From positions 1 to 4,214 of IMG/VR virus record IMGVR_UViG_2565956624_000005: DNA of 4,214 nt; one strand, 5' to 3'. This document shows, piece by piece, positions 1 to 4,214 of the stretch. Under the pieces are notes generated by a model. The model had not been told where the DNA came from, did no database searches, and worked only from the letters and a program-made list of their open reading frames with translations. Position 1 is the stretch's first letter. Every line of letters starts with the position of its first letter. Position numbers and translations under genes: made by a program. The stretch is from a virus. Lineage: Duplodnaviria; Heunggongvirae; Uroviricota; Caudoviricetes.

Positions 1-82
1 TACAGAGCGTGGCGTTAAGTGGTCAGACGAAGCGCGACTGGCTCTGGAGTGGAAAGCAAGATGGGGAGACAGGGCTGCATGA
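1..82 (+). CDS. ninB: 3' end of upstream gene, probably NinB-like (partial; start lies upstream of the window)
   Basis: Frame starting at pos 2 is open to TGA 80-82 (…[22 protein letters not shown]). Its stop overlaps the NinC ATG (ATGA at 79-82). Identity rests on position directly upstream of ninC; not verified by search. Confidence 0.4.
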   Translation, partial: TERGVKWSDEARLALEWKARWGDRAA

Positions 83-924
83 TAAATGTCGTTAGTTTCT
101 CAGGTGGCAGGACGTCAGCATATTTACTCTGGCTAATGGAGCAAAAGCGACAGGCAGGTGAAGACGTGTATTACGTTTTCATGGATACAGGGGCAGAGCA
201 CCCTAAAACATATGAGTTCATCCGAAATATCGTCAGTAACTGGAAAATAGACTTACATTGCCTTCGTGTAATACCTAATCCAGAAATGGGGAAGGCCAGT
301 AGTTATGAAGAGATAGGTGTCAATGATATTGGTCCAGATCTTATACCGTGGAAAAGGATGTTGAATAAATACGGACATCCATATATCGGCGGTGCGTTCT
401 GTACCGACAGAATGAAGTCTGTTCCATTCACCAAATATTGTCAGGAAAAGTTTGGGAAAGGAAATTACATCACATGGCTTGGCATTCGCACAGATGAACC
501 AAACAGGCTTAAAAGGGCTAATGGTTTTCGGTACCTGGCTGATATAAGCGATTTTGAAAAACAGGATGTGCTTGATTGGTGGAGTGAGCAGAAGTTTGAT
601 CTTGGCATACAGGAGCATCTTGGTAATTGTGTTTTCTGCATAAAAAAAAGTATGCAAAAGGTGGCGCTGGCAGCCATGGATGAGCCAGAACTTGCAGATG
701 CATTTATCAACATCCTTGATACAGAAATAAAAACAGGAAAGGAACCGGTTATGTATCGAGGGAATAATACACTTAAATCACTGATTGCCTTGTTTAGTGA
801 TATATCAAGAGATGAGTTAGCCTCAAGAATGACATCAATGCGACAGTATGATTCAGGTTCGTGTTCTGAATCATGTGAAGCATTTTCATGTCAGCTTGGA
901 TTTAATTTTGAGGATGCGGCATGA
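79..924 (+). CDS. ninC: NinC-like protein, phosphoadenosine phosphosulfate (PAPS) reductase / PP-loop ATP-pyrophosphatase family
   Basis: ORF-track frame 19..924; preferred start is ATG 79 (GGAGA at 65-69, 9 nt upstream) rather than GTG 19. N-terminus [24 protein letters not shown] carries a PP-loop-like SGGxxS motif (codons ~100-117). Matches remembered lambda NinC closely. Cys codons at 628, 637, 862, 874, 889. Stop TGA 922-924 overlaps the next ATG. Confidence 0.85.
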
Positions 925-1097
925 GACGACAGCGACGAAGTATCACCGACATAATCTGCGAAAACTGCAAATACCTTCCAACGAAACGCTCCAGAAATAA
1001 ACGCAAGCCAATCCCAAAAGAATCTGACGTAAAAACCTTCAACTACACGGCTCACCTGTGGGATATCCGGTGGCTAAGACATCGTGCGAGGAAATGA
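921..1097 (+). CDS. ninE: NinE family protein (58 aa)
   Basis: Not in the ORF track (under 60 aa). Hand translation from ATG 921: [58 protein letters not shown], stop TGA 1095-1097. GAGGA at 910-914, 6 nt upstream. Very similar to remembered lambdoid NinE. ATGA overlap with ninC stop. Confidence 0.8.
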
Positions 1098-1099
1098 CA

Positions 1100-1501
1100 A
1101 TGCTTTTAATTCAACCTGGATTTGGCCTTAGCATCAAAAAAGGGCACATGTTTGGCGAGAAAGAGTCTCAACGAAAAATGGTGTCTATCCAGTTGCCATT
1201 TATCAGTATTTATTGGCTAAACAGGGAGGCAACAAATTATTGGTATACATGCGCCAGAGCGGCATTTAACGACCCTGACTGGTTTGTGAAAAATCACCAT
1301 GCAGTTCGTCAGGCAAAGAGAAAGGCCAATACGACATACATGAAGGCGTATCGAAAAGCATGGAAAGAACACCGCGATCGATACCAGCAAGACATGGAAA
1401 AGCTTGAATCAGAAAACATGGAATTAAGACGAAAGCTTGGTGAAGCAAAACGAGACATTGATGCTTACAAGCGACTTTTTAATGGTGAAAGCCATGCTTA
1501 G
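1100..1501 (+). CDS. Hypothetical protein, NinX-like by position (between ninE and ninF); function unknown
   Basis: ORF-track frame 1058..1501. Candidate starts are ATG 1094 (ATGA overlap with ninE stop) and ATG 1100 (GAGG at 1088-1091, 8 nt upstream); GTG 1058 is less likely. Aromatic-rich core (ISIYWLNREATNYWYTCARAAFNDPDWF) followed by a basic, coiled-coil-like C-terminus (KAYRKAWKEHRDRYQQDMEKLESENMELRRKLGEAKRDIDAYKRLF). NinX label is by synteny with P22/HK97-type nin regions only. Confidence 0.55.
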   Translation: MLLIQPGFGLSIKKGHMFGEKESQRKMVSIQLPFISIYWLNREATNYWYTCARAAFNDPDWFVKNHHAVRQAKRKANTTYMKAYRKAWKEHRDRYQQDMEKLESENMELRRKLGEAKRDIDAYKRLFNGESHA

Positions 1502-1670
1502 CCCATCCCAATCCCTTCAATACCAGAAAGAAAGCGTTGAGCGAGCTTTAACGTGCGCTAACTGCGGTCAGAAACTGCATGTGCTGGAAGTTCACGTGTG
1601 CTCCGATTGCTGCGCAGAACTGATGAGCGATCCGAATAGCTCAATGTACGAGGAAGAAGACGATGAATGA
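1494..1670 (+). CDS. ninF: NinF family protein (58 aa)
   Basis: ORF-track frame 1437..1670 begins with TTG; the ATG at 1494 gives MLSPSQSLQYQKESVERALTCANCGQKLHVLEVHVCSDCCAELMSDPNSSMYEEEDDE*, nearly identical to remembered lambda NinF. Overlaps the upstream gene by 8 nt. Stop TGA 1668-1670. Confidence 0.8.
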   Translation: MLSPSQSLQYQKESVERALTCANCGQKLHVLEVHVCSDCCAELMSDPNSSMYEEEDDE

Positions 1671-2385
1671 GTTAATAAATGGCAATGCCATCAAAATGAC
1701 AAGCATTGAAATCGCTGAGTTGGTTGGTAAGCGTCATGACAATGTGAAACGTACCATCGAAACGCTGGCTAAAAATGGTGTTATCCGGCTTCCTCAAATT
1801 GAGGTTTCCGAAAGAATCAATAACTTAGGGTTCAATGTTCAGTACGAGCATTACGTCTTCGAAGGCGAACAAGGTAAGCGCGACAGCATTGTTGTCGTTG
1901 CCCAGTTGTCGCCGGAATTCACGGCTCGCCTTGTTGACCGTTGGCGAGAGCTTGAAGAAGCTGCGGTTAATATCCCAAAAACGCTACCAGAAGCGTTGCG
2001 CCTTGCTGCTGACCTTGCTGAGCAGAAAATGCAACTGGAAAACCAGCTCGCAATTGCCGCACCTAAAGTTGAGTTTGCCGATCGCGTTGGCGAGGCCAGA
2101 GGAATTTTGATTGGAAACTTTGCAAAGGTTGTTGGAATTGGTCCAAACAAACTGTTTGCGTGGATGCGCGATCACAAAATCCTTATTGCTTCAGGTTCCC
2201 GGCGCAATGTGCCAATGCAGGAATATATGGATCGCGGCTATTTCACAGTGAAAGAAACAGCGGTCAACACAAATCACGGAATACAGATATCGTTCACCAC
2301 AAAAATCACCGGGCGTGGTCAACAGTGGCTGACCAGAAAGCTGCTCGATAACGGAATGCTGAAAGTAACAGGGGAGGCTGCTTAA
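1663..2385 (+). CDS. Phage regulatory protein, Rha-family N-terminus fused to KilA-C/antirepressor-type C-terminal domain (Roi-like)
   Basis: ORF 1663..2385 (240 aa). ATG 1663 with GAGGA at 1651-1655, 7 nt upstream; ATGAATGA overlap with ninF stop. N-terminus (MTSIEIAELVGKRHDNVKRTIETL) resembles the Rha family; the segment LPEALRLAADLAEQKMQLENQLAIAAPKVEFADRV resembles the KilA-C/Ant C-terminal domain. Sits where lambda has ninG. Confidence 0.8.
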   Translation: MNELINGNAIKMTSIEIAELVGKRHDNVKRTIETLAKNGVIRLPQIEVSERINNLGFNVQYEHYVFEGEQGKRDSIVVVAQLSPEFTARLVDRWRELEEAAVNIPKTLPEALRLAADLAEQKMQLENQLAIAAPKVEFADRVGEARGILIGNFAKVVGIGPNKLFAWMRDHKILIASGSRRNVPMQEYMDRGYFTVKETAVNTNHGIQISFTTKITGRGQQWLTRKLLDNGMLKVTGEAA

Positions 2386-2675
2386 TGGCTAACCTACGCA
2401 AAGAAGCACGCGGCAGAGAATGCCAGGTACGTATTTACGGCGTATGCAATGGCAATCCTGAAACTACAGTTCTGGCACATTACCGGATGGCTGGAATTTG
2501 CGGAACGGGAATGAAGCCTGACGACCTGATCGGCGCATGGGCTTGTAGTGACTGCCACGCGGAGATCGACCGACGCACCCGGATTCTCGACAACAAAGAC
2601 GCCAGACTTTACCACCTCGAAGGCGTGATCAGGACGCAGGCGATACTGCTGAAGGAGGGGAAGATTAAGTCATGA
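2385..2675 (+). CDS. ybcO: DUF1364 family protein, YbcO-like putative zinc-binding nuclease
   Basis: ORF 2385..2675 (96 aa) MANLRKEARGRECQVRIYGVCNGNPETTVLAH…CSDCHAEIDRR…, matching the remembered DLP12 YbcO. GGGGAGG at 2371-2377, 7 nt upstream. TAATG overlap with the upstream stop. Confidence 0.8.
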   Translation: MANLRKEARGRECQVRIYGVCNGNPETTVLAHYRMAGICGTGMKPDDLIGAWACSDCHAEIDRRTRILDNKDARLYHLEGVIRTQAILLKEGKIKS

Positions 2676-3034
2676 ACGAATATCAGTTTGTGCTTCCATA
2701 CCCGCCGTCGGTGAATACCTACTGGCGAAGACGGGGAAGCCAATATTACATAAGCGATAAAGGCCAGAAATACCGAAAAGACGTTCAGCAAATCATCCAC
2801 CAACTCAAGTTAGATATTTTCACCAAATCACGACTCCGCATCAAAGTCATCGCAGACGTTCCAGACTCCCGCCGCCGCGACCTCGATAACATCCTGAAAG
2901 GTTTACTCGATTCCCTTATCCACGCCGGATTTGCGGAAGACGACGAGCAATTCGATGACATTCGCGTAATTCGTGGTGTGAAAGTACCAGGCGGACGGCT
3001 TGGAATAAAAATCACCGAACTGGAGAACGCATGA
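2672..3034 (+). CDS. rusA: Crossover junction endodeoxyribonuclease RusA (Holliday junction resolvase)
   Basis: ORF 2672..3034 (120 aa). Hallmark RusA segments: LPYPPSVNTYW, DVPDSRRRDLDNILKGLLDSL, GGRLGIKITE; length typical of RusA. ATGA overlap with ybcO stop. Confidence 0.9.
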   Translation: MNEYQFVLPYPPSVNTYWRRRGSQYYISDKGQKYRKDVQQIIHQLKLDIFTKSRLRIKVIADVPDSRRRDLDNILKGLLDSLIHAGFAEDDEQFDDIRVIRGVKVPGGRLGIKITELENA

Positions 3035-3219
3035 ACGCCACAATTCAAACGATACCAGAGCTTCTTATCCAGACACGAGGCAATCAGACCGAAGTGGCGA
3101 GGATGCTTTCCTGTGCAAGAGGAACAGTGCTCAAGTACAACCGAGACAGCAAAGGCGAGCGTCATGTAATAGTTAACGGCGTCCTGATGGTCAAACAGGG
3201 AAAGAGGGGAAGACGATGA
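3031..3219 (+). CDS. ninH: NinH family protein (small putative DNA-binding protein)
   Basis: ORF 3031..3219 (62 aa). The core TIPELLIQTRGNQTEVARMLSCARGTVLKY…VIVNGVLMV resembles remembered lambda NinH. ATGA overlap at both ends. Confidence 0.8.
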   Translation: MNATIQTIPELLIQTRGNQTEVARMLSCARGTVLKYNRDSKGERHVIVNGVLMVKQGKRGRR

Positions 3220-3734
3220 GCATAAGAGAACTAAACCTCACCAAAGAACAGCACGATTGGCTGAATGGCTGGCTTGAACTGTGGGGCGCATGGGTTTATT
3301 CAGGCCGCCTGGAAAAGCGCATGAGCAGCGTAATAGCGAAATTCATGGAGAGCGTAGAGCCGGGAAGAGTTATGACAAGGCCAATGTGTAATGATGATGA
3401 TGGAATGTTGATTTCTCAGGTCGTCGATTCCGTCATGTGCATTGACAAGAAAGCCTTTGGCATCCTCCTCAGCTACTACGCTCATGGTTCATCTAAGCGA
3501 GCAATTGCATCCTACTATCACGCGACTGCAAAGCCACGCAAGATGTGTGGACGTGGTGGCGAGGGATGGAGAAAACCTTCACTGGCAACCTGTAGAAACG
3601 AAATTGACGACATCCTGAAAGCGTCATTATTTGTTTTATACCAGCCAATGCAAAATGCTTTCAAAATGCGTAAACGTGTTGAGAAAGTTAAGCATATTGC
3701 TGTTAAAAGCCTTGACATGCAATTAGCCATTTAG
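3216..3734 (+). CDS. Q: Late-gene antitermination protein Q (non-lambda type, Q21/Q82-like family)
   Basis: ORF 3216..3734 (172 aa). Last gene of the nin operon, immediately upstream of a candidate late promoter, tRNAs and holin. GAGGGG at 3204-3209, 6 nt upstream. No similarity to remembered lambda Q; family assignment is by position and general resemblance and needs an HMM search. Confidence 0.7.
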   Translation: MSIRELNLTKEQHDWLNGWLELWGAWVYSGRLEKRMSSVIAKFMESVEPGRVMTRPMCNDDDGMLISQVVDSVMCIDKKAFGILLSYYAHGSSKRAIASYYHATAKPRKMCGRGGEGWRKPSLATCRNEIDDILKASLFVLYQPMQNAFKMRKRVEKVKHIAVKSLDMQLAI

Positions 3735-3741
3735 CCATAAT
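3712..3741 (+). promoter_or_regulatory. Candidate sigma70 late promoter (pR'-like): -35 TTGACA, 18-nt spacer, -10 CATAAT
   Basis: TTGACA at 3712-3717 and CATAAT at 3736-3741. The -35 and spacer lie inside the last codons of Q; the position between Q and the lysis genes is the canonical pR' location. Confidence 0.45.
3723..3738 (+). repeat. Perfect tandem direct repeat TTAGCCAT x2 within the promoter spacer/-10 region; candidate Q-binding element
   Basis: TTAGCCAT at 3723-3730 and again at 3731-3738, followed by AATTAG. Read directly from the sequence; the functional assignment is inference. Confidence 0.3.
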
Positions 3742-3751
3742 TAGAAGGTAA

Positions 3752-3797
3752 GCTGCCGTTAGTGACTCTTAAGTTGCAACGGTGGCTTTTTTTATTT
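3752..3797 (+). terminator. Putative intrinsic terminator (tR'-like): imperfect hairpin followed by a T-run
   Basis: GCTGCCGTT (3752-3760) can pair with AACGGTGGC (3778-3786), 9 bp including two G.U pairs, 17-nt loop, then TTTTTTTATTT (3787-3797). The large loop lowers confidence. Confidence 0.45.
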
Positions 3798-3872
3798 GGG
3801 TCAGTCGTATAAAGGTCATTACGGAAGGCTGTTAACCTTCTTATCGTGGTTCGAGTCCACGCTGTCCCGCCA
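3798..3872 (+). tRNA. tRNA-Asn (anticodon GUU)
   Basis: Manual cloverleaf: acceptor GGGTCAG / CTGTCCC (one T.T mismatch), 3-bp D stem with GG-containing loop, anticodon stem GAAGG/CCTTC with loop CTGTTAA (U33, GUU, A37), 4-nt variable loop, T arm CGTGG-TTCGAGT-CCACG, discriminator G, encoded CCA. Anticodon loop and T loop match remembered E. coli tRNA-Asn. Confidence 0.6.
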
Positions 3873-3877
3873 AATAT

Positions 3878-3953
3878 GCTGGTTTAGCTCCAATGGTAGA
3901 GCAGTCGCCTTGTAAGCGAATGGGTAGCGGTTCAAGTCCGTTAACCAGCACCA
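3878..3953 (+). tRNA. tRNA-Thr (anticodon UGU)
   Basis: Manual cloverleaf: perfect acceptor GCTGGTT / AACCAGC, U8, D stem GCTC/GAGC with loop CAATGGTA, anticodon stem (4 bp plus G.A) with loop CTTGTAA (U33, UGU, A37), 5-nt variable loop, T arm AGCGG-TTCAAGT-CCGTT, discriminator A, encoded CCA. Confidence 0.7.
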
Positions 3954-4069
3954 TAACTGAGCCGTAGCCACTGACTATCCTGAACTCATCAGCGATAGTT
4001 ACGCTGCGGCCTTCTTTTCCCCTTCCCAATATAAGAACTACGCAATCCGTTACTGGCGGAGGCGTTGCT

Positions 4070-4214
4070 ATGAAATCAATGGACAAAATCTCAACTGGCA
4101 TTGCTTACGGAACATCCGCTGGTAGTGCGGGATACTGGTTTTTGCAGTGGTTGGATCAGGTCAGTCCGTCACAGTGGGCTGCGATTGGAGTGCTTGGAAG
4201 CCTTGTGTTGGGTT
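4070..4214 (+). CDS. S: Holin, phage 21 S-type pinholin (class II), dual-start motif; 3' end beyond window
   Basis: Not in the ORF track because no stop lies within the window. From ATG 4070: [48 protein letters not shown]…, matching the remembered S21 sequence. GGAGG at 4058-4062, 7 nt upstream. Second in-frame ATG at 4079. Confidence 0.85.

Follow-up and report, generated by a model that had tools for sequence, protein, structure and literature searches.

The stretch of viral DNA considered here (IMG/VR record IMGVR_UViG_2565956624_000005, positions 1–4214; hereafter the window) is 4214 bp long, matches a prophage region of Escherichia coli FDAARGOS_1288 with 100% identity and is a typical mosaic lambdoid nin region. 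Its genes run in the order ninB (3′ end), ninC, ninE, a 147-residue open reading frame (ORF), ninF, Roi, ybcO, rusA, ninH, Q, tRNA-Asn and tRNA-Thr, the Roi gene being Rha/KilAC antirepressor-like. Our subject is ninC, whose product had been described from the letters alone (the sequence-only reading) as an enzyme of the 3′-phosphoadenosine 5′-phosphosulfate (PAPS) reductase/PP-loop family with a constellation of five cysteines and no assigned function. We describe its fold and conserved residues, its relationship to a phage protein linked to escape from Dnd restriction, and the roles that it may play. The gene and its immediate flanks were placed as follows.

1–82, + strand: 3′ end of ninB (recombination mediator), coding to nt 79 by frame translation; its stop codon TGA (80–82) overlaps the ninC ATG (ATGA)
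79–924, + strand: ninC, 281 residues, a PAPS-reductase-fold protein of the NinC/anti-Dnd-like phage clade, from translation, PF01507, PHROG 33262 and homologues
921–1097, + strand: ninE, 58 residues (PF05322, E 7e-44), the downstream edge of a variable slot described below; its start overlaps the ninC stop (ATGA)

Since the ninC ATG overlaps the ninB stop, and the ninC stop the ninE start, ninC is coupled in translation to both neighbours. The ORF had been drawn at 79–924 on the + strand, and stands as drawn. By position and homology it is a true ninC, belonging to a lambda-like prophage of E. coli: its protein matches PHROG 33262 (E 8e-113), its DNA is 98.6% identical to the annotated NinC of the P22-like Salmonella phages SE16 and SF11, and lambda NinC (NP_040635.1, ‘Nin 290’) is 56% identical to it in amino acid sequence (E 1e-117). 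The post-ninB position, the ATGA coupling, the presence of ninE downstream and orthology to lambda NinC together place the protein in the NinC family. NinB is annotated immediately 5′ of NinC in lambda and in phage SE16, and the order ninB, slot, ninE is also present in phages and E. coli genomes. A mosaic joint lies within ninC itself: the end of ninB and the first ∼38 ninC codons are lambda-like at the DNA level (96% identity, confined to nt 60–191 of the window), and nucleotide similarity is gone beyond them.

Two further observations concern the downstream part of the window. A 147-residue ORF with a GTG start (1058–1501, + strand) lies between ninE and ninF and overlaps both; it had no Pfam match above cut-off, and its sole annotation in related phages is ‘hypothetical’. 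Two phage-borne tRNA genes, tRNA-Asn(GTT) at 3798–3872 and tRNA-Thr(TGT) at 3878–3953 (both + strand), stand directly 3′ of the gene for the Q antiterminator.

Fold, motifs and conserved cysteines

On the evidence of profile and model comparisons, NinC is a PAPS-reductase-fold (PP-loop superfamily) protein of a large phage-borne clade, and it is predicted to be catalytically intact. The PF01507 (PAPS_reduct) hidden Markov model (HMM) matched NinC at 33.8 bits against a gathering cut-off of 22.5 (E 4.4e-8), over residues 3–142 only, and a PF01507 assignment was precomputed for 117 of the 120 NinC relatives listed. An AlphaFold2 model built with 52 homologues (predicted local distance difference test score, pLDDT, 87.2; predicted template modelling score 0.86) has a Rossmann-like α/β nucleotide-binding fold with the P-loop after strand 1. 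The best structural matches to this model are reductases of adenosine 5′-phosphosulfate (APS) and PAPS, the closest being the [4Fe-4S] APS reductase 2GOY, and ∼155 of the 281 NinC residues superpose on the reductase structures; the BFVD viral fold library added only relatives labelled ‘PAPS reductase’. The family assignment made by the sequence-only reading is thus borne out by the HMM check, with which the fold matches agree. A PDB search with the single NinC sequence was uninformative (E >0.1), and a family profile was required.

Relatives were collected with HMMER by exhaustive search through 1.84 billion cluster representatives; 1514 reached E ≤1e-3, and 116 of them E ≤1e-30. Conservation was scored in an alignment of 102 near-full-length sequences, comprising 100 cluster representatives together with the window and lambda NinC, at ∼30–70% identity. 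NinC contains eight cysteines (C61, C108, C121, C184, C187, C262, C266 and C271), five of which are conserved in this alignment: C108, C184 and C187 without exception (100%), and C262 and C266 in nearly every sequence (97% and 96%, respectively). Because these five are conserved and C271, C61 (42%) and C121 (33%) are not, the true constellation, as judged from the alignment, is C...CxxC...CxxxC (C108, C184/C187, C262/C266) and not CxxC...CxxxCxxxxC. Such conservation is far beyond chance, since mean column identity is only 27%. The five cysteine codons given earlier (628, 637, 862, 874 and 889) all lie where they were placed, and the first four (C184, C187, C262 and C266) belong to the conserved set; the fifth, C271, does not, and the invariant C108 had been missed.

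Beyond the cysteines, K113, R137, E140, R143, N183 and K190 are likewise invariant or nearly so (∼100 representatives, 30–70% identity), and the family signature reads SFSGGRTS / TGxEHxxTxxF / xCTxxLK / GIRxDExxR / GNCxxCxKKS / YRG / CSESCE. The individual elements lie in the window as follows.

94–117, + strand: PP-loop-type motif SFSGGRTS, residues 6–13, which in alignment matches the APS/PAPS-reductase P-loop segment
184–219, + strand: 12-residue motif, residues 36–47, by alignment equivalent to the nucleotide-binding motif DTGxxxPETYxF in PAPS/APS reductases
400–417, + strand: CTDRMK (C108...K113); C108 and K113 100% conserved, with C108 on the first cysteine of the APS-reductase CC pair (an Fe-S ligand position)
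481–507, + strand: GIRTDEPNR, residues 135–143, by hhalign the counterpart of the sulfonucleotide-reductase ‘Arg-loop’ GLRRxQxxxR; G135, R137, E140 and R143 invariant
622–648, + strand: GNCVFCIKK, residues 182–190, with invariant C184-x2-C187 and K190; local hhalign places C184/C187 on the APS-reductase CxxC Fe-S ligands
862–879, + strand: CSESCE, residues 262–267, the near-invariant dyad C262-x3-C266 on the C-terminal tail, from the 102-sequence alignment
889–891, + strand: C271 codon, not conserved (column mostly gap, D, S, E or G; Gly in lambda NinC)

The PP-loop-like SGGRTS near the N-terminus, already noticed in the sequence-only reading, is present at residues 8–13, with S8 conserved in 97% of sequences, G9 in 92%, G10 in 96%, T12 in 86% and S13 in 97%. 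In the second motif T37, G38, E40, T44 and F47 are each at least 93% conserved. The corresponding loop of DndC and SspD is SGGKDS.

Alignment of the NinC family with APS reductases by hhalign reached 94.7% probability, with good column confidence at C108 and at K113, which falls on a conserved Lys. The match of C184/C187 to the CxxC of those enzymes appears only in the local alignment, where it is of low confidence but collinear, and the global alignment is two columns off register; we regard this correspondence as suggestive rather than firm. On these alignments three of the four [4Fe-4S] ligand positions of APS reductase are kept (C108, C184 and C187), the second position of the CC pair being Thr109. 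The three cysteines would then occupy cluster-ligating positions and probably lie together in three dimensions. The C262/C266 dyad stands on the tail, at the place of the catalytic ECGLH tail of CysH and APS reductase, in a part of the model with a mean pLDDT of 54 (residues 261–270); the value falls below 50 for residues 270–281.

Many NinC relatives of ∼320–380 residues (P0123–P0156; L043, L045, L049 and L066) match in two stretches, with a break at NinC residues ∼145–150. This pattern points to an insert of ∼40–80 residues that separates the nucleotide-binding domain from the CxxC region.

Relatives tied to Dnd escape and to DNA adenine methyltransferases

A single phage protein of PAPS-like type, p0018 of Vibrio phage 44E38.1 (QZI91755.1), has been linked to Dnd escape, and its PAPS-like module and NinC are closely homologous: NinC residues 1–270 align with the N-terminal 278 residues of p0018 at 62% identity (E 1e-121). 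The p0018 gene is preceded by p0019, which encodes a DUF6475 protein (L003:3411–3998). Piel et al. reported that p0018 and p0019 were the sole genes specific to phages infecting Dnd-carrying Vibrio (bioRxiv 10.1101/2021.05.05.442762; Nat Microbiol 2022), and that a sensitive phage into which both had been recombined reached 1e11 plaque-forming units (PFU)/ml on a Dnd+ retron-deleted host (10.1101/2021.05.05.442762). A 2026 paper in Nucleic Acids Research cites this result as a case of Dnd evasion promoted by a phage PAPS reductase, and reports PAPS reductases in Aca-regulated anti-defence operons. One virome survey places ‘Anti-Dnd’ among the anti-defence systems of unknown molecular mechanism, and a second counts Anti-Dnd as an anti-defence gene class. 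Another anti-Dnd protein, JSS1_004, was considered and set aside, being a T7 gp0.7-like kinase unrelated to NinC.

Because its closest studied relative is linked to Dnd escape, the function of NinC is not fully unknown. The earlier description of the protein as lacking an assigned function is thus partly outdated, in view of the p0018 link and of an ‘Anti-Dnd’ entry in existing anti-defence catalogues. The accompanying suggestion of DNA modification or counter-defence, though not its putative adenylation or thiolation chemistry, gains support from the likeness to the p0018 module and from repeated fusion or adjacency to Dam.

Six of the 10 long NinC relatives scanned are fusions to a PF05869 Dam or a PF02086 D12 methyltransferase, in both orders. 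Among 80 IMG/VR loci, a PF05869-like Dam is present in 10. Five of these are confirmed single-ORF fusions and a sixth is a probable one (L052, in which no single NinC ORF was resolved); in the other four, Dam is encoded upstream on the same strand, abutting ninC in two cases and 0.2–0.8 kb away in two. In E. coli 2024CK-00474 (L087:879–2248) the genes are arranged ninB-dam-ninC-ninE, each stop codon overlapping the next start. That NinC modules have been joined repeatedly and independently to methyltransferases of two unrelated families argues for a substrate common to NinC and Dam, namely DNA. Two other NinC-family proteins, P0128 (492 residues) and P0249 (420 residues), have extensions of ∼130–200 residues with no Pfam match, which may carry further fusion partners.

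The position right after ninB is a four-state slot, holding ninC, dam, dam and ninC together, or nothing, each junction being made by overlapping stop and start codons. Otherwise near-identical nin regions carry ninC (the window and lambda), dam alone (phage N7, L004:1579–2106) or an empty slot (CUS-3, L005:1579–1755). The ninC allele of the window, with at least 80% of the gene covered, was found in 28 of 5426 complete E. coli genomes, as against 2605 with some match to the window. The variable slot and the sporadic allele indicate that ninC behaves as an accessory, swappable cassette.

Possible roles of NinC

The fold, the motifs, their conservation, the homology to a protein linked with anti-Dnd action and the genetic association with Dam we regard as established at the level of sequence and model. 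The explanation that we favour for them, to which we would give a little less than an even chance, is that NinC is a DNA-directed accessory counter-defence enzyme with nucleotide-dependent Fe-S and cysteine-dyad chemistry. Such an enzyme would combine an N-terminal nucleotide-binding domain carrying the SGGRTS loop, a cysteine triad at [4Fe-4S] positions, a family-specific helical C-terminal region and a flexible tail bearing the dyad. It would act on DNA, alone or with a Dam-type adenine methyltransferase, and its target would most likely be phosphorothioate-based (Dnd-type) restriction. ATP or an adenylated sulfonucleotide may be bound at the P-loop, with a sulfur or redox relay via the dyad and the Fe-S cluster, a host cysteine desulfurase being the probable source of the sulfur. 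The outcome would be that phage DNA is marked, or that the restriction module is otherwise blunted.

A bolder form of this proposal, which we consider quite unlikely, would make NinC-type proteins self-contained, single-polypeptide DNA sulfur-modifying enzymes that dispense with DndD/E or SspB/C partners. They would place phosphorothioate or thio-base marks with sulfur from host IscS passed via the dyad, and in many phages a Dam module, fused to them or encoded next to them, would direct them to GATC-like sites; phage DNA would thereby gain a ‘self’ mark that blinds phosphorothioate-sensing restriction. A sparse or host-specific mark would explain why none has ever been seen in lambda DNA.

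A number of observations weigh against the counter-defence enzyme that we favour. Likeness to the phosphorothioation writers is limited to the N-terminal half: homology of the PP-loop domain to SspD (6.4e-14), BrxP (6.9e-8) and DndC (1.6e-4) covers NinC residues 4–144 only, where the PADLOC SspD profile is matched at positions 3–122 of 277, and the DndC equivalog TIGR03183 scored 12 bits against a cut-off of 290. Moreover, the Asp of canonical ATP pyrophosphatases is replaced by Thr in the NinC PP-loop, which bears a likeness to the APS-reductase loop SFSGAED as well. Phosphorothioate synthesis is reported to need a PAPS-domain protein together with a P-loop NTPase of the DndD/SspC/BrxC type (PMC12914056). 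No DndD/E, SspB/C, BrxC or cysteine desulfurase was suggested among the families listed (25 of 79) for 134 neighbour-cluster representatives from 80 viral loci; the families listed were helicases, polymerases, single-stranded-DNA-binding proteins, NinB/NinG, O/P, Ead and similar. The lack of conserved partner genes among the families listed for the 80 viral loci argues against a canonical multi-gene Dnd/Ssp-like module. Identity as a canonical DndC or SspD was excluded by HMM coverage and by the test for partner genes among those listed families.

The phage experiments also call for caution. The Vibrio phenotype came from two genes moved together, and p0018 is fused to Dam, so that Dnd escape is not pinned to the NinC-like module; the window, at 4.2 kb, contains neither a dam gene nor a homologue of p0019 (DUF6475). 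Three Dnd systems still restrict lambda, in which ninC is non-essential and which is normally ninC+, by a factor of 3 to 60 (efficiency of plating 0.016–0.3); on DndB7A, the strongest of the three, lytic phages lose up to five logs. Lambda NinC would thus be at best a partial counter-measure under those conditions. GATC methylation alone gives no block of DndFGH, which fits the Vibrio result, in that the phage with Dam only stayed sensitive.

NinC might instead be a true sulfonucleotide (APS/PAPS) reductase, encoded by an auxiliary metabolic gene that raises sulfite or cysteine supply in infection. Reductases of this type are its best structural matches, they share with it the DTG...P.T motif, the Arg-loop and three of four cluster-ligand positions, the C-terminal cysteine tail is analogous to their catalytic ECGLH tail, and PHROG and RefSeq label the protein a PAPS reductase. 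Nevertheless, the ECG[LI]H catalytic motif of CysH and APS reductase was not found in the NinC C-terminus, where CSESCE, also the family consensus, stands in its place, and curated CysH/APS-reductase HMMs fail badly (PRK02090, 17.6 bits versus 154; TIGR02055, 15.5 versus 235; TIGR02057, 12.1 versus 254). On these defining-motif and curated-HMM tests, NinC falls outside the sulfate-assimilation reductases. Superposition is limited to little more than half of the protein, its relatives are repeatedly fused to DNA methyltransferases, the neighbouring genes are those of replication and recombination rather than of sulfur metabolism, and E. coli already has cysH; we therefore hold a metabolic reductase to be very unlikely. 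An RNA modification enzyme, a [4Fe-4S] PP-loop thiolase or a protein of the lysidine-synthase type that retunes or protects tRNAs, for example against tRNA-targeting defences, is also unlikely. Matches to RNA-enzyme families fell under their cut-offs, THUMP, PUA and TilS C-terminal domains were not detected in NinC by the Pfam scan, the fusion partners are DNA adenine methyltransferases and not RNA enzymes, and the experimental link concerns a restriction system that senses DNA.

NinC might also counter defence, or aid DNA metabolism, with DNA left unmodified. It could act as a decoy or inhibitor of host DndC-containing or restriction complexes, could drain a sulfur carrier or nucleotide cofactor on which a defence depends, or could serve as an accessory to NinB/Orf recombination. 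Such roles accord with the lack of conserved modification partner genes nearby with the translational coupling of ninC to ninB and with the listing of anti-Dnd as a system of unknown mechanism; lambda DNA is not known to be modified. Strict invariance of the P-loop, the Arg-loop, the Lys and the five cysteines at 30% identity speaks for catalysis over mere binding, however, and ninC is frequently absent where ninB is present. A shared DNA substrate, suggested by the independent fusions to two unrelated methyltransferase families, also counts against a non-modifying role, to which we give little weight.

Few sizeable genes of the lambda family still await a demonstrated role, ninC being one, and the database label of NinC as a sulfate-assimilation enzyme is probably misleading. 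Among phage PAPS-like proteins, its close homologue p0018 alone has been connected with Dnd escape. If the DNA-directed counter-defence enzyme proposed here is real, it would supply a mechanism for the catalogued ‘Anti-Dnd’ entry. It would also correct readings of ‘phage PAPS reductases’ in viromes as auxiliary metabolic genes, such as the sulfur-metabolism reading in bioRxiv 10.64898/2026.02.18.706556.

Comparison with known systems

In comparison with the APS reductases of P. aeruginosa (2GOY) and M. tuberculosis (7LHR) and with CysH (1SUR, 6VPU), NinC differs in having no ECGLH and one cysteine instead of the CC pair. It has in addition an extra helical region of ∼70 residues between the CxxC and the tail, and its genomic context is other than theirs. 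The cysteine pattern of NinC is paralleled by that described at review level for DndC, in which a three-cysteine [4Fe-4S] cluster is accompanied by a cysteine dyad proposed as a sulfur relay (PMC10853773); both proteins are linked to DNA.

The best PDB match by the NinC family profile is chain C of 21fy, ‘PptA’ (E 3.4e-7), and hhalign of PptA with the NinC family gave 97.6% probability over NinC residues 1–219. PptA, a distant relative of NinC, has the same five-cysteine pattern (C92, C172xxC175, C237xxxC241), with NNCVGCVK as its form of the CxxC motif and ECSLVCS at the position of the NinC dyad; unlike NinC, its P-loop is degenerate (FSCGAPS). A 62-residue PptA fragment is 100% identical to the product of a gene of the T7-like Vibrio phage vB_VhaP_VH-5 (MN497414.1, 18758–19510; L086:5980–6732), which sits just after the RNA polymerase gene. 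Literature searches found no publication on PptA (PDB 21fy).

Lambda NinC has the same post-ninB position and keeps C108, C184, C187, C262 and C266. It is nevertheless a different allele from that of the window, being without C271 and having an extra cysteine in TGCEHP. The Vibrio protein p0018 shares every NinC motif, including CSESCE, and its gene, like ninC, lies in a phage early/recombination region, adjoining a ninG/rap-like gene. It is annotated as ‘Dam methyltransferase with PAPS reductase domain’ and carries its own C-terminal Dam domain (residues 300–476), whereas the NinC of the window stands alone.

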